A DNA stretch of 64,000 nucleotides from Acidimicrobiia bacterium (GCA_009377435.1 WHUC01000001.1:200-64199); one strand, 5' to 3'; positions 34,934 through 41,483 are shown, counted from the stretch's first letter. Made by a program: numbers and translations. Notes: generated from the sequence alone by a model not told the origin.

Positions 34934-36186
34934 ACCCCTCGATCGAGGACCTGTTGCGCACCCTGGCGCCGCAGGTCCTCGGGGCCCTCATCCGACGCTA
35001 CGGCAACTTCGATCTTGCCGAAGACGCCGTCCAGGAAGGCCTTTTGGCGGCGGCCCTCCAGTGGCCCGAGAAGGGTATCCCCGAAAACCCCCGGGGCTGG
35101 CTCATCCGGGTCGCGTCCCGGCGTCTCATCGACGCGCTGCGTAGTGAGACGGCGCGGAAACGCCGCGAGGACAAGACGGCGGCGATGGGGTCACGCGACC
35201 TAACCATGACTACGGCACCGGACTACATCGGCCCACCCCGGGAGGACGACACCCTCGCCTTGTTGTTTCTGTGTTGTCACCCCGCCCTCACAGAGGCATC
35301 GCAGATCGCCCTCACCCTTCGCGCCGTCGGGGGTCTCAACACGACCGAGATCGCCAGTGCCTTCCTCGTCCCCGAGACCACCATGGCCCAGCGCATCAGC
35401 CGGGCCAAGCAAAAGGTCATCACCTCTGCGATTGGCTTCGAGATGCCCCCTCCCGAGGAGCGCCGGGAGCGCCTTGGAACCGTGCTACACGTGCTCTACC
35501 TGATCTTCAACGAGGGTTACGCTGCCAGCTCCGGCCCCCATCTGCAACGTGCCGAGCTAGCCGCTGAGGCCATCCGCCTCGCCCGTGTGGTTCATGGCCT
35601 CCTCCCCGAGGACGCCGAGGTGACGGGTCTTCTCGCCCTGATGCTCCTCAACGATGCTCGTCGCCCGGCCCGCACCGGACCCAATGGCGACTTGATCCCC
35701 CTTGAGGAGCAGGACCGTGGGCTCTGGGACCCGGCGCTGATCTCCGAGGGTGTCAAGCTGCTGGAGAGTGCCCTCGGTGGTGGGGTGATCGGTCCCTTTC
35801 AGATCCAGGCGGCAATCGCCGCGGTCCACATCGAAGCCGAGACGGCGGATGCCACCGACTGGGTGCAGATCGGCGGATTGTATGCCCTGCTGGAACGGAT
35901 CACCGACAACCCCATTGTCACGCTGAATCGCGCCGTTGCCGTGGCCAAGGCCCAGGATCCCCGTCTCGGTCTGGCGATGCTCGACAGGTTGGAGTCCGAC
36001 GGCCGCATGGCGGACCATCACCGTTTCCACGCCGTGCGGGCCCATCTGCTCGAAATGGAGGGCGACACCGCCGGGGCGGTAGCTACCTATCGCCGGGCGG
36101 CCAGCCGCACCCGAAGTGTGCCCGAGCAGCGGTATCTGCAGAGCAGGGCCGCCGCCCTGGAGGGGAACCCAGACCCGCCAACCTGA
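34930..36186 (+). CDS. sigma-70 family sigma factor with a C-terminal extension (SigJ-like, DUF6596)
   Basis: Sigma-2 (FDLAEDAVQEGLLAA) and sigma-4 (GGLNTTEIASAFLVPETTMAQRISRAKQKV) regions plus a ~200-aa C-terminal extension. Confidence 0.8.
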   Translation: MNPSIEDLLRTLAPQVLGALIRRYGNFDLAEDAVQEGLLAAALQWPEKGIPENPRGWLIRVASRRLIDALRSETARKRREDKTAAMGSRDLTMTTAPDYIGPPREDDTLALLFLCCHPALTEASQIALTLRAVGGLNTTEIASAFLVPETTMAQRISRAKQKVITSAIGFEMPPPEERRERLGTVLHVLYLIFNEGYAASSGPHLQRAELAAEAIRLARVVHGLLPEDAEVTGLLALMLLNDARRPARTGPNGDLIPLEEQDRGLWDPALISEGVKLLESALGGGVIGPFQIQAAIAAVHIEAETADATDWVQIGGLYALLERITDNPIVTLNRAVAVAKAQDPRLGLAMLDRLESDGRMADHHRFHAVRAHLLEMEGDTAGAVATYRRAASRTRSVPEQRYLQSRAAALEGNPDPPT

Positions 36187-36228
36187 GGTTCGGCTGTACC
36201 TGGAGGTACAAAATCAGCTGATGTTGGG
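36175..36228 (+). repeat. copy 1 of a ~55-nt intergenic repeat (CCGCCAACCTGAG..TGTACCTGGAGGTACAAAATCAGCTGATGTTGGG)
   Basis: Shares 85-90% identity with the copies at 37383 and 41433. Overlaps the sigma-gene stop codon. Contains GTACC-N4-GGTAC and ATCAGCTGAT palindromes. Confidence 0.6.
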
Positions 36229-36327
36229 AGGCGGCCTCACCGTGGGCGGGCTGACCATCATCCCCGTGGACACCATTGCCGATAGATGTGACACAAACAA
36301 GTCGACGCCAGCCTTGCCCGCGCCCGA

Positions 36328-38631: not shown

Positions 38632-41393
38632 CAGTCCCCGCCTCCCGCCAGGGTGACCAGGTTGGCGAGGTCGGCGTCGTCGAGCTCGGTGATCCAGCTC
38701 TCCCCGCCACCCACGACGGTGTCGGCCAGGACCCGTTTGTCCTCCAACACGGTGGCGATCCGATCCTCCACCGTGCCCTCGCACACCATACGATGGACCT
38801 GCACCGGTCGGTCCTGGCCGATTCGCCACGCCCGGTCCGAGGCCTGGTCCTCGACCGCCGGATTCCACCAGCGGTCGTAATGGACGACGTGGGTGGCCCG
38901 GGTCAGGTTGAGCCCGGTCCCGCCCGCCTTGAGCGAGATGACGAAGACGTCGGCGTCGCCCGCCTGGAACCGGTCCACCATCTGCTGGCGGCCATTGACC
39001 GGCACCGACCCATGGAGGAAAAGGGTGCGCAGGCCCTGCTCGTCGAGGTGGCGTTGCAGCAGACGTCCCATCGCCACGTACTGGGTGAACATGAGGACGG
39101 CATCGTCCTCGTCGACGATCACCTCGACCAGTTCGGAGACGGCGTCAAGCTTGCCCGATCGTCGCCCCAGCGGCCCGGCCTGGCCGAGGTACTGGGCGGG
39201 GTGGTTGCAGATCTGTTTCAGCGCCGTCAGCAACTTGAGGACCAGTCCCCGACGAGAGATTCCGTCCGACTGTCCGATCTGGTCGAGGATCTCGGCCACC
39301 ACCGCCCGGTACAAGGTGGTCTGCTCGCCGGTGAGGGGCACCAGGCGGTCGGTCTCGGTCTTGGGTGGCAGTTCGGGTGCCACCGTCGGGTCCGACTTGC
39401 GTCGCCGCAGCACGAACGGGCGGATCATGGCGGCGAGTGAGGCAGCGGCATCGGGGTCGCGATGACGTTCGACCGGAACCGCCACCTGGCGACGGAACCG
39501 CTCCAGGGGTCCGAGCAGACCGGGGGTGGTCCAGTCGAGGATCGCCCACAGATCGGTGAGGCGGTTCTCGACGGGGGTGCCGGTGAGGGCGAAGCGCGCC
39601 CCCGCAGGTATCGTCCGCATGGCCCGGGCCGTCCGTGACAGGGGGTTCTTGATGGCCTGCGCCTCGTCGGCCACGACCAGGTCCCACCCCACCTCCACGA
39701 GCCGGGCGCCGTCGCGACGGGCCACTCCATAGGTGGTGAGGACTATCCCGCCGGGGGCGAGGTCGTCGAGCGTCCGCTCGGGGCCGTGGTAACGACGCAC
39801 CGCGACGGTGGGCGAGAACCGGGCCGCCTCCCGCTCCCAGTTGCCGATGAGGGAGGCGGGGCACACGACCAGCGTCTGTCCACCGCGTTCCAGATGCAAC
39901 CCCAGCACCTGGACTGTCTTACCCAGACCCATGTCGTCGGCGAGGACCCCACCGAGACCGAGCCCGGCCATCTCGGCCAGCCACGCCAGCCCTCGCCGCT
40001 GGTAGGGGCGGAGGACGGCCACGAGGCGGGTGGGTTCGGGGCGCTCCCGGTCGGGGTCGGCGGCCCTGAGCCGGTCGGCCAGCTCGGCGATGGTGCCTTC
40101 GACGGTGGCCTCCACGGCCTCGCCGTCTACCACCAACTGACCGCCTAGCGCCGCCGCCAAGGCCACCCCGGCCCCGATGCTTCGGCGGGTGCGCAGACGG
40201 GTGAGCCGGTCGGGATCGGCCCTCACCCATCGACCCCGCAACTTCACCAGCGGACGCTTCGCCTCCACCAGCGCCGCCATCTCGTCGTCGGTGAGGGTCT
40301 CCCCGTCGATGCTGGCCTTCCATCTCAGCTCCACCAACGACTCGAGGGAGAGACCGGCACTTGTCACCGCCGAGGGAGTGGGGGTGGTCACTGTGGGTCG
40401 CACGGTGACCTCGGTCAGCAGCTCCGACGGCCATTGGACTTGAATGCCACCTGAGGCGAGGTCGTCGACCACGGGGCCCAACAGGTCCGCTACCTCGTCG
40501 TCGTCGAGGATCATCTCGGTGGGTCGGGCCTCGTCGAGGAGCCGGCCCAGGGGCGGCCACACTCGTTGCCCCCGGCGCAGTCCCAGGAGGAGCGCGTTCT
40601 CGGCGTCACCCAGACGCGACAGCACCACCTCCGGGGCGTCCCACAAGTCGGCTGCTTCCAGCGTCAGGCTGGGGTCGGTTCGGCTGTGGAGGACCAGGGT
40701 CGCCCGGAAGGCGTCGCCGGCGGCGTCGGGCGAGGCGCCTGGCTCGTCGGGCAGGTCCAGGCGCAGCACGACGGAGGCCTGGTCGTCGGCCACCGCCAGC
40801 ATCTCCAGCCACGGCTCCGCACCTGCCAGCGACGACGACATCCGATCGGCGAAGGCCGCCGCTCCCGCCACGGTGACGGCCGCCGCCGTGCGGGGAAGGG
40901 CATCGGCCACCGCATCCCCAAATTCCCCGACTGTCGTGGCAGCAGACCGGAGACGGAGCGGGCTGGTGTCTTCGACGGCAAGAGCGTGGGCGGCGGGAGG
41001 CAAGGCGTCGGCGAGGCGGGCCAGCCGCTCGACGTCGGCGGGGTCGAGTGGGCCGAGGCGCCAGGTGTCGTGTCCGCCCGGTGACATCGACGGCATAAGC
41101 CGGCCCCGAGCGACGAGCTCCACCGCCAGGTCGGTGGCGGTGGTCCATGCCCGCATCGACGGGGAGAGGTCGGGTCCGGACCCGCCGCCGATCAGGTAGT
41201 CCACAGCCTGGATGATCGGCATTTTCCGCACCGGTATCGATCGGCGTCTCACCCTCGACCCGGCCGGAAGCACCAGTTCGAGCCGGTCGTCGGCGTCGGC
41301 GATCTCGCCGGTTCTGGACCACAGGGCGAACCAGCTCTCTCGAGGGGGATCGGCGGGCACGAAGGTCGCTTCGATGTCAGGGCCGGCGCGCAT
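38631..41393 (-). CDS. SNF2-family DEAD/DEAH helicase (HelZ/RapA-like)
   Basis: LRPYQRRGLAWL, LADDMGLGKT, DLVVADEAQAIKN, helicase-C motifs. 920 aa. Confidence 0.9.
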   Translation of the reverse strand: MRAGPDIEATFVPADPPRESWFALWSRTGEIADADDRLELVLPAGSRVRRRSIPVRKMPIIQAVDYLIGGGSGPDLSPSMRAWTTATDLAVELVARGRLMPSMSPGGHDTWRLGPLDPADVERLARLADALPPAAHALAVEDTSPLRLRSAATTVGEFGDAVADALPRTAAAVTVAGAAAFADRMSSSLAGAEPWLEMLAVADDQASVVLRLDLPDEPGASPDAAGDAFRATLVLHSRTDPSLTLEAADLWDAPEVVLSRLGDAENALLLGLRRGQRVWPPLGRLLDEARPTEMILDDDEVADLLGPVVDDLASGGIQVQWPSELLTEVTVRPTVTTPTPSAVTSAGLSLESLVELRWKASIDGETLTDDEMAALVEAKRPLVKLRGRWVRADPDRLTRLRTRRSIGAGVALAAALGGQLVVDGEAVEATVEGTIAELADRLRAADPDRERPEPTRLVAVLRPYQRRGLAWLAEMAGLGLGGVLADDMGLGKTVQVLGLHLERGGQTLVVCPASLIGNWEREAARFSPTVAVRRYHGPERTLDDLAPGGIVLTTYGVARRDGARLVEVGWDLVVADEAQAIKNPLSRTARAMRTIPAGARFALTGTPVENRLTDLWAILDWTTPGLLGPLERFRRQVAVPVERHRDPDAAASLAAMIRPFVLRRRKSDPTVAPELPPKTETDRLVPLTGEQTTLYRAVVAEILDQIGQSDGISRRGLVLKLLTALKQICNHPAQYLGQAGPLGRRSGKLDAVSELVEVIVDEDDAVLMFTQYVAMGRLLQRHLDEQGLRTLFLHGSVPVNGRQQMVDRFQAGDADVFVISLKAGGTGLNLTRATHVVHYDRWWNPAVEDQASDRAWRIGQDRPVQVHRMVCEGTVEDRIATVLEDKRVLADTVVGGGESWITELDDADLANLVTLAGGGD

Positions 41394-41432
41394 CGTCCGA
41401 TCCTAGATCGCTGGTGAGGGGTCCAATCCCCC

Positions 41433-41483
41433 GCAAACCCGCCAACCTTGTACCTGGAGGTACAAAACCAGGCTGATGTTCGG
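41433..41483 (+). repeat. copy 3 of the ~55-nt repeat (no 10-nt internal insert)
   Basis: CCGCCAACCTTGTACCTGGAGGTACAAAACCAGGCTGATGTTCGGG. Lies in the divergent promoter region between the SNF2 gene and the MazE-like antitoxin. Confidence 0.6.

Follow-up and report, generated by a model that had tools for sequence, protein, structure and literature searches.

We analyzed a 64,000-nucleotide (nt) stretch of DNA from an Acidimicrobiia bacterium (GCA_009377435.1, WHUC01000001.1:200-64199; hereafter, the window, numbered from its first letter) that carries a short palindromic repeat at three gene boundaries. The 19-nt core of the repeat, TGTRCCTGGAGGTACAAAA, matches exactly at 36195-36213, 37404-37422, and 41449-41467, always on the + strand. 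Chance would supply 0.01 such matches in the window, and three were reached in none of 100 shuffles. The original prediction of a ~55-nt repeat occurring three times in the same orientation is thus upheld, and the repeat is real and specific. In the alignment, similarity among the three copies spans CGCCAACCT to GTTSGGG, ~52 nt, with pairwise identities of 90–95% when only ungapped columns are counted; identity among the copies ranges from 85 to 95% across ~50 nt.

The repeat and its symmetry

The three copies differ mainly in their arms. Copy 1 (36175-36234, + strand; 85 bits with our covariance model) has the sequence CCGCCAACCTGAGGTTCGGCTGTACCTGGAGGTACAAAATCAGCTGATGTTGGGAGGCGG, in which the palindrome is lengthened by outer CCGCC/GGCGG bases. 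In the left arm of copy 2 (37383-37437, + strand; 80 bits), GTGCAC replaces GTTC with one extra base, and an A-to-G change in the inner stem yields a G·T pair. Copy 3 (41439-41483, + strand; 62 bits) has one additional G in its right arm and lacks the 10-11 nt GAGGTTCGGC from its left arm, an internal deletion that had been reported correctly; the start first proposed for this copy, 41433, is too early, as similarity begins only at 41439. Shorter sub-motif patterns, an nhmmer profile, and the covariance model with its filters off retrieved no further copies in the window.

The element is a nested imperfect palindrome of 45–55 nt, with a unit of ~52 nt. Outer inverted arms of ~10 nt, approximating CGAACCTCAG and CTGAAGTTCG, are separated by 7-nt spacers from an inner stem of 6 bp around a 4-nt centre (TGTACC-TGGA-GGTACA). 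This inner palindrome, which has no strand, lies at 36195-36210 in copy 1 and 41449-41464 in copy 3; at 37404-37419 in copy 2, it reads TGTGCC-TGGA-GGTACA. The GTACC-N4-GGTAC inverted repeat that had been ascribed to every copy is hence perfect in copies 1 and 3, whereas copy 2 reads GTGCC and forms the G·T pair. Similarly, a second palindrome assigned to each copy, ATCAGCTGAT, is present in copies 1 and 2, but copy 3 reads ACCAGGCTGAT and a fourth copy, located on another contig (L004, described below), reads ATCGGCTGAA. Because it is kept in neither of the latter, the ATCAGCTGAT palindrome is probably incidental.

Pairing supports the nested register, in which 85% of alignment cells are paired, compared with at most 47% in slid registers. 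All six pairs of the inner helix are retained in all four copies. Within the outer helix, 76% of cells are paired; L004 keeps the outer arms best, with 9 of 10 positions matching, and the arms of copies 2 and 3 are degraded. Between copy 1 and L004, one C-G pair of the outer helix is exchanged for G-C, although covariation among only four sequences is not significant. The RNAalifold consensus keeps the 6-bp hairpin alone (-7.5 kcal/mol). When folded individually as RNA, the + strand of copy 1 (z=-3.0) and the - strand of L004 (z=-4.6) beat their shuffles, and copies 2 and 3 fold no better than shuffled sequence. Wobble pairs favor opposite strands, + for copy 2 and - for L004, and the symmetry therefore looks like a property of the DNA rather than of a strand-specific RNA. 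Across the four copies, 1 of 19 core columns varies versus 18 of 35 flanking columns (p=0.0008), a test that is biased because L004 was recovered through an exact core match; for the window copies alone, with the deletion counted once, the contrast is ~1/19 versus 8/35 and not significant.

Gene boundaries and secondary arrival

Copy 1 sits at the 3' end of a sigma factor gene. A YciI gene (34529-34933, + strand; Pfam) overlaps the start of the gene for a 418-amino-acid, ECF42-like sigma factor (34930-36186, + strand) of the extracytoplasmic function (ECF) type, whose C-terminal domain is DUF6596 (Pfam). We take a YciI gene paired with a DUF6596-containing ECF sigma factor to be the ECF42 arrangement rather than SigJ/ECF41, and the earlier description of the gene as SigJ-like is replaced on these grounds. 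The sigma stop codon, TGA at 36184-36186 (+ strand), falls within copy 1, an overlap that had been recognized from the start, and the repeat supplies the final three codons (PPT). Beyond copy 1, an open reading frame (ORF) of 82 amino acids at 36328-36576 (- strand), also called on an assembled contig in the Logan collection, encodes a C-terminal UnbV_ASPIC domain and nothing else (Pfam E=4.9e-15). Since this domain normally ends a much larger protein, the ORF is a gene remnant and marks a rearrangement junction beside copy 1. The 5' part of the gene has been replaced by a block comprising a second YciI-like gene (36636-37028, + strand; Pfam) and a CsbD-like gene (37152-37355, + strand; Pfam), which together occupy the interval between copies 1 and 2. 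The second YciI paralog lies 450 nt downstream of the sigma gene and has no sigma gene of its own.

Copy 2 lies between the convergent CsbD and SWIM genes, as proposed, and in addition contains the SWIM stop codon (37423-37425, - strand), the last five codons being repeat sequence. The SWIM gene (37423-38631, - strand; Pfam) forms an operon with an SNF2 helicase gene (38631-41393, - strand; Pfam) that fills the space between copies 2 and 3. The SWIM-SNF2 pair is widespread and conserved on chromosomes, and here the block (38000-40000) has a GC content of 0.71 versus ~0.65 for the window. Except for the 3–5 terminal codons of the two genes ending within it, the repeat is extragenic.

The location of copy 3 between divergent SNF2 and antitoxin genes also agrees with the original prediction, the antitoxin being of the ribbon-helix-helix (RHH) type (41523-41774, + strand; Pfam) and followed by a PemK/MazF toxin gene (41768-42103, + strand; Pfam). 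The inner palindrome of copy 3 lies in the middle of the interval that separates the starts of SNF2 (41393, - strand) and the antitoxin gene (41523, + strand). TANNNT hexamers, TAGGAT at 41400-41405 (- strand) and TAGGCT at 41511-41516 (+ strand), each stand 6 nt before an ATG, and neither gene has a Shine-Dalgarno sequence (41391-41405, - strand; 41511-41525, + strand). The combination of hexamer placement and missing Shine-Dalgarno sequence suggests leaderless transcripts from two predicted promoters; copy 3 would then fill the spacer between these promoters while touching neither. No match to a sigma-70-type promoter or an intrinsic terminator was found in 34000-43000. On the + strand the hairpin precedes AAAA, on the - strand it comes after TTTT, and there is no U tract.

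Several lines of evidence bear on how the repeat came to these positions. No other repeated DNA was found around the copies. Since the two YciI paralogs are only 45% identical in amino acid sequence, the ~90% identical repeats are either unconnected with that paralogy or far more recent. Two findings had been named as grounds for abandoning a dispersed element, namely a local duplication that also copied the flanking coding sequence and membership in a described family; neither was observed. The nearest SWIM homologs are 65–71% identical as proteins, and the SNF2-SWIM pair of these relatives has different neighbors from those in the window. The orthologous loci, including the region upstream of SNF2, contain no copy of the element, and no degenerate or further copies were detected there with the nhmmer profile or with the covariance model run with filters off. 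The SWIM protein encoded in the window ends in an 11-residue tail, ELVGSVNSPTIS, that is absent from 13 homologs, all of which end at DLWx. The sigma factor has seven extra residues relative to its closest homologs, which end in ...RLG or ...ALG, but this tail is weaker evidence because C-terminal length varies in the sigma family. Rearrangement is also indicated by the ASPIC remnant next to copy 1. Judged from these comparisons, the copies are shown to have arrived secondarily at gene boundaries, either by transposition or by recombination.

In one relative (L037), a hairpin with an 18-bp stem, TCGCGCGGATTCCGTGCA-N6-TGCAGGGAATCCGCGCGA, lies at 2340-2381, 25 nt downstream of the stop codon of SWIM. 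It is unrelated to the repeat and occupies the position that copy 2 takes in the window; the site after the SWIM stop codon tolerates, or needs, a stem-loop.

The remainder of the window is ordinary chromosome, including polA, rpsA, coaE, uvrB, uvrA, ABC transporters, and a sulfite-reduction cluster. Two more genes for ECF-like sigma factors lie at 33805-34374 (+ strand) and 20938-21630 (- strand). A protein combining DUF222 with an HNH endonuclease domain (48745-49977, - strand) has the architecture of the mycobacterial 13E12-repeat family and is possibly the product of a mobile or selfish gene. The 52-56 kb stretch has the lowest GC content of the window (0.60). Also encoded are a Fic/DOC protein with Fic_N and HTH_13 domains (52623-53792, + strand) and a protein with an Xre/MbcA/ParS-type antitoxin domain (54504-54944, - strand), for which the ORF at 53975-54502 (- strand) is a possible partner.

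A fourth copy and searches beyond the window

An exact-core scan of one genome per species, among whose matches the window's own contig does not figure, yielded 13 matches where ~9 are expected by chance. Flanking sequence in common with the window copies was found only at L004, on contig WHTI01000298.1 of the metagenome-assembled genome (MAG) Dino_bin32. Over 52 nt, the L004 copy has 90% identity with copy 1; it is the single copy on its contig, and no other similarity exists between that contig and the window. A DUF5615 PIN-like toxin gene precedes the element by 24 nt, and the element occupies the region 57-109 nt upstream of a lipB-like gene. The lipB-like gene has the same promoter layout as the genes flanking copy 3, with TACCCT and 7 nt before the ATG. 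The window organism was found only in sequencing run SRR10173838, a Centrosaurus bone metagenome from which L004 also derives; given this shared origin, L004 comes from elsewhere in the same genome or from a sister population. Exact look-ups of the second YciI, SNF2, and sigma proteins retrieved no record, and those of mazE and mazF led twice to the same contig. The Centrosaurus fossil-bone metagenome SRR10173838 was the source of the Dino_bin MAGs, and the clade formed by Dino_bin11/16/32 represents a possible new class or order (PMC8067395).

Independent assemblies of the same sample have breaks inside the element. Four independent Logan contigs, with eight ends among them, contain ~220 nt of element in 13.5 kb. 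One begins inside copy 1 (window 36192), one ends inside the L004 copy (L004 position 214), and the other two span copies 2 and 3. Having two of the eight ends fall inside elements (P ~0.007) is as expected of sequence that branches in an assembly graph. The stretch common to copy 1 and L004 is exactly 30 nt long, which would branch a k=31 graph, but the observed break points do not coincide with this shared 30-mer. Because of that mismatch, further copies or variants are likely present in the sample, if the assembler behaved as we suppose.

Candidates from wider collections were rejected as copies. In a Micromonosporaceae MAG (L003), a 22-nt palindrome with perfect arms, TTTTGTACCTGGAGGTACAAAA, contains the same 16-nt core at 1735-1757; the likeness is limited to this longer palindrome, with unrelated flanks, and TTTTGTACCTGGAGGTACAAAA may have matched by chance or may be operator-like. 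All 16 core matches in JGI metagenome contigs were low in GC or had unrelated flanks, and five viral matches to a looser core were attributed to chance. Plasmid and phage collections gave nothing by blastn. When the translated frames of the repeat were compared with a set of 5.8 billion proteins, no ORFs called across other copies were retrieved. At gathering thresholds, the only Rfam match in the whole window was a tRNA (3622-3705, - strand; 84 nt, 55 bits) that is unrelated to the repeat, and at E<=10 nothing in 36000-41700 matched at the copies. The statement that the repeat belongs to no recognized family therefore holds for Rfam and for the plasmid, phage, JGI metagenome, and viral collections. 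Literature searches on ECF42 promoters, REP elements (see below) of Acidimicrobiia, and the core sequence gave nothing relevant.

We also set aside several specific identities. A small ORF behind the GGAGG in the loop lacks its ATG in L004, and the downstream peptides are unrelated. An ECF or sigma-70 promoter was dismissed for want of consistent -35/-10 elements, with the spacing altered in copy 3. On comparison by eye, parS, dif, the LexA box, and the RecA-NDp motif did not fit. A tRNA-derived att site was rejected since the repeat profile does not match the window tRNA.

Origin, role and relation to known systems

The repeat is previously undescribed and most likely belongs to the class of intergenic repeats that resembles repetitive extragenic palindromes (REPs, and the related REPINs) or miniature inverted-repeat transposable elements (MITEs). 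With moderate confidence, we regard it as a low-copy, lineage-restricted palindromic element of this kind that arrived secondarily at gene boundaries. Two copies landed on or beside stop codons, and because they did so, the sigma and SWIM genes now terminate inside the repeat; another occupies free spacer between two predicted divergent core promoters. The element may be carried as selfish or neutral DNA, its well-kept inner hairpin being the part that a copying enzyme would recognize, and a stem-loop at transcript 3' ends may be a by-product. Mobility itself is presumed. Three of the four copies are at gene 3' ends, as is usual for REP-like elements, and nothing in our analysis shows a dedicated regulatory role. 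The original suggestion of a dispersed element similar to REPs or to mycobacterial interspersed repetitive units (MIRUs) survives in its first half, given a fourth copy at an unrelated locus, relatives that lack the element, and genes that end inside it; the second half fails, as no tandem units are present.

A number of observations weigh against this assignment. The dispersed nature of the repeat is shown only weakly, as there are four known copies and three lie within 5.3 kb (P ~0.02 for random placement in 64 kb). Scanning one genome for each species with the exact core added a single copy, and the JGI metagenome scan yielded none. No direct repeat longer than 2 nt, as expected of a target-site duplication, flanks any of the four copies, and the alignment reveals no GTAG-type tetranucleotide beside either stem. 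Among ~60 window ORFs scanned with Pfam, none encodes a transposase, RAYT, or integrase. Furthermore, the extra conservation of the core is partly a matter of ascertainment, L004 having been found via the exact core.

Chance similarity, or a by-product of recent local duplication, has next to no probability despite the confinement of all window copies to 5.3 kb: the expected number of chance matches is negligible (0.01), the flanks are unrelated, the YciI paralogs have diverged to 45% identity, and the fourth copy occupies an unrelated locus. Chance or local duplication is accordingly excluded. An operator for a dimeric DNA-binding protein, consisting of the inner palindrome read as TGTA-N8-TACA or TGTAC-N6-GTACA, is unlikely but would account for part of the data. 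Candidate regulators would be a CRP/FNR-type factor or the adjacent RHH antitoxin, with SNF2-SWIM, mazEF, and, on L004, lipB as targets and the remaining copies as decoys or relics. An NtcA-like TGTA-N8-TACA dyad occurs in every copy except copy 2, which has TGTG instead; the promoters that it would serve are themselves predicted. The inner 16 nt are the best conserved part of the element (1/19 variable columns versus 18/35 in the flanks), copy 3 is midway between two divergent starts, the L004 copy is 57-109 nt upstream of lipB, and three copies cluster around one gene neighborhood (P ~0.02). The site for a dimeric regulator that had been put forward earlier thus fits the two of four copies that lie upstream of a gene, copy 3 and L004, but not copies 1 and 2: copy 1 has no gene to regulate at the sigma 3' end beside a gene remnant, nor does copy 2 between convergent stop codons. 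Moreover, an operator would leave ~35 nt of shared flanking sequence superfluous, no degenerate TGTACC-N4-GGTACA sites exist elsewhere in the window, relatives have no site upstream of SNF2, and the conservation contrast loses significance when L004 is omitted and the deletion is treated as one event. No cNMP-binding or FNR-type regulator was found in the window.

Slightly harder to credit, and improbable in our view, is a function at the RNA level, in which the repeat would act at transcript 3' ends as a terminator without a U tract or as a block to 3' exonucleases, recruited at gene ends and by analogy comparable to REP hairpins in E. coli. Three of four copies do abut 3' ends (sigma; CsbD and SWIM together; the DUF5615 toxin on L004), good folds were obtained for the + strand of copy 1 and the - strand of L004, a relative has its unrelated 18-bp hairpin 25 nt past the SWIM stop, and the substitution in copy 2 retains a G·U pair on the + strand. 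Yet copies 2 and 3 fold no better than shuffles, the consensus fold is limited to a 6-bp hairpin (-7.5 kcal/mol) devoid of covariation, the wobble evidence indicates opposite strands in different copies, there is no U tract, 34000-43000 contains no terminator match, copy 3 lies between two 5' ends, and no Rfam family matches. A small structured RNA, as once entertained, is not supported, with no Rfam match at E<=10, no significant covariation, and no promoter or terminator match. We consider it very unlikely that the copies are directly oriented recombination sites delimiting exchangeable blocks (YciI-CsbD, SWIM-SNF2, and mazEF beyond). The shared orientation in three consecutive intergenic regions, the different neighbors of these blocks in relatives, the gene remnant at one junction, the higher GC content of the SNF2-SWIM block, the toxin-antitoxin pairs adjoining two copies, and a two-fold symmetric layout with four half-sites that suits a recombinase are all compatible with such sites. 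Conversely, the scanned window ORFs include no recombinase or integrase, attC core sites (RYYYAAC/GTTRRRY) are not conserved from copy to copy, SNF2-SWIM, being widespread and conserved on chromosomes, is not a typical cassette, three copies share an orientation by chance with a probability of 0.25, and the L004 copy is alone on its contig. Only a faint prospect attaches to the bolder version, in which the copies would be recognition sites of a novel site-specific recombination or HUH-type system that shuffles blocks between chromosomal positions in a novel actinobacterial class. If true, it would constitute a cassette system akin to integrons or pdif modules outside the lineages known for such systems.

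On present evidence, the repeat is a modest, local curiosity without bearing on a wider question. If confirmed, it would provide the first small palindromic repeat family for the deep-branching, uncultured actinobacterial clade of Dino_bin11/16/32. Such repeats break assemblies, mark recombination junctions, can be used as strain markers, and change where genes end, as seen here in the C-terminal tails that two proteins gained. Interest would remain modest unless genome-wide data show that the copies recombine or that they belong to a large family with a transposase of its own.

Among known systems, integron attC sites and Xer pdif sites, the latter flanking modules on Acinetobacter plasmids, are likewise imperfect palindromes of 50-60 nt that stand in direct orientation between gene blocks, with toxin-antitoxin genes nearby. 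However, the repeat lacks the conserved R''/R' core sites of attC (RYYYAAC, GTTRRRY): at the R' position, copy 1 reads GTTGGGA, copy 2 GGTCGGG, and copy 3 and L004 GTTCGGG, and the left end CGCCAAC does not fit RYYYAAC as R''. Window Pfam scans identified no integrase or Xer-type gene nearby, and one of the blocks is a conserved, housekeeping-like operon of 4 kb. The MIRUs of mycobacteria are comparable as ~50-nt actinobacterial intergenic repeats overlapped by the ends of flanking genes. They nevertheless form tandem arrays (46-101 bp units) within operons and are gene-oriented and non-palindromic, whereas the units here are single, palindromic, and never tandem, and no tandem family was found.

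MITEs, exemplified by Correia/NEMIS of Neisseria, RUP of Streptococcus, and Nezha of cyanobacteria, are closer in kind. Although the repeat, at ~52 nt, is shorter than most MITEs, has no target-site duplication at its copies, and to our knowledge has no parent insertion sequence with matching ends, it is small, has terminal inverted arms (CGAACCTCAG/CTGAAGTTCG), and is inserted at gene boundaries, where such elements can supply stop codons or change gene ends. REPs and REPINs are repetitive extragenic palindromes mobilized by RAYT Y1 transposases, with examples in E. coli, Pseudomonas, and Stenotrophomonas (SMAG). The repeat departs from them in having four known copies rather than tens to hundreds, no conserved GTAG-type tetranucleotide beside its hairpin, no RAYT gene among the ~60 window ORFs, and a deep-branching, uncultured actinobacterium as host; we know of no REP family in hosts of this type. 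The likenesses are nonetheless several: it is a short, non-coding, imperfect palindrome capable of forming a hairpin (the inner 6-bp stem is intact in 4/4 copies), its sites are extragenic, most of them at 3' ends or in gaps between converging genes, and it recurs as near-identical copies in unrelated contexts without target-site duplication. As in REPINs, the whole unit resembles two half-elements joined head to head.

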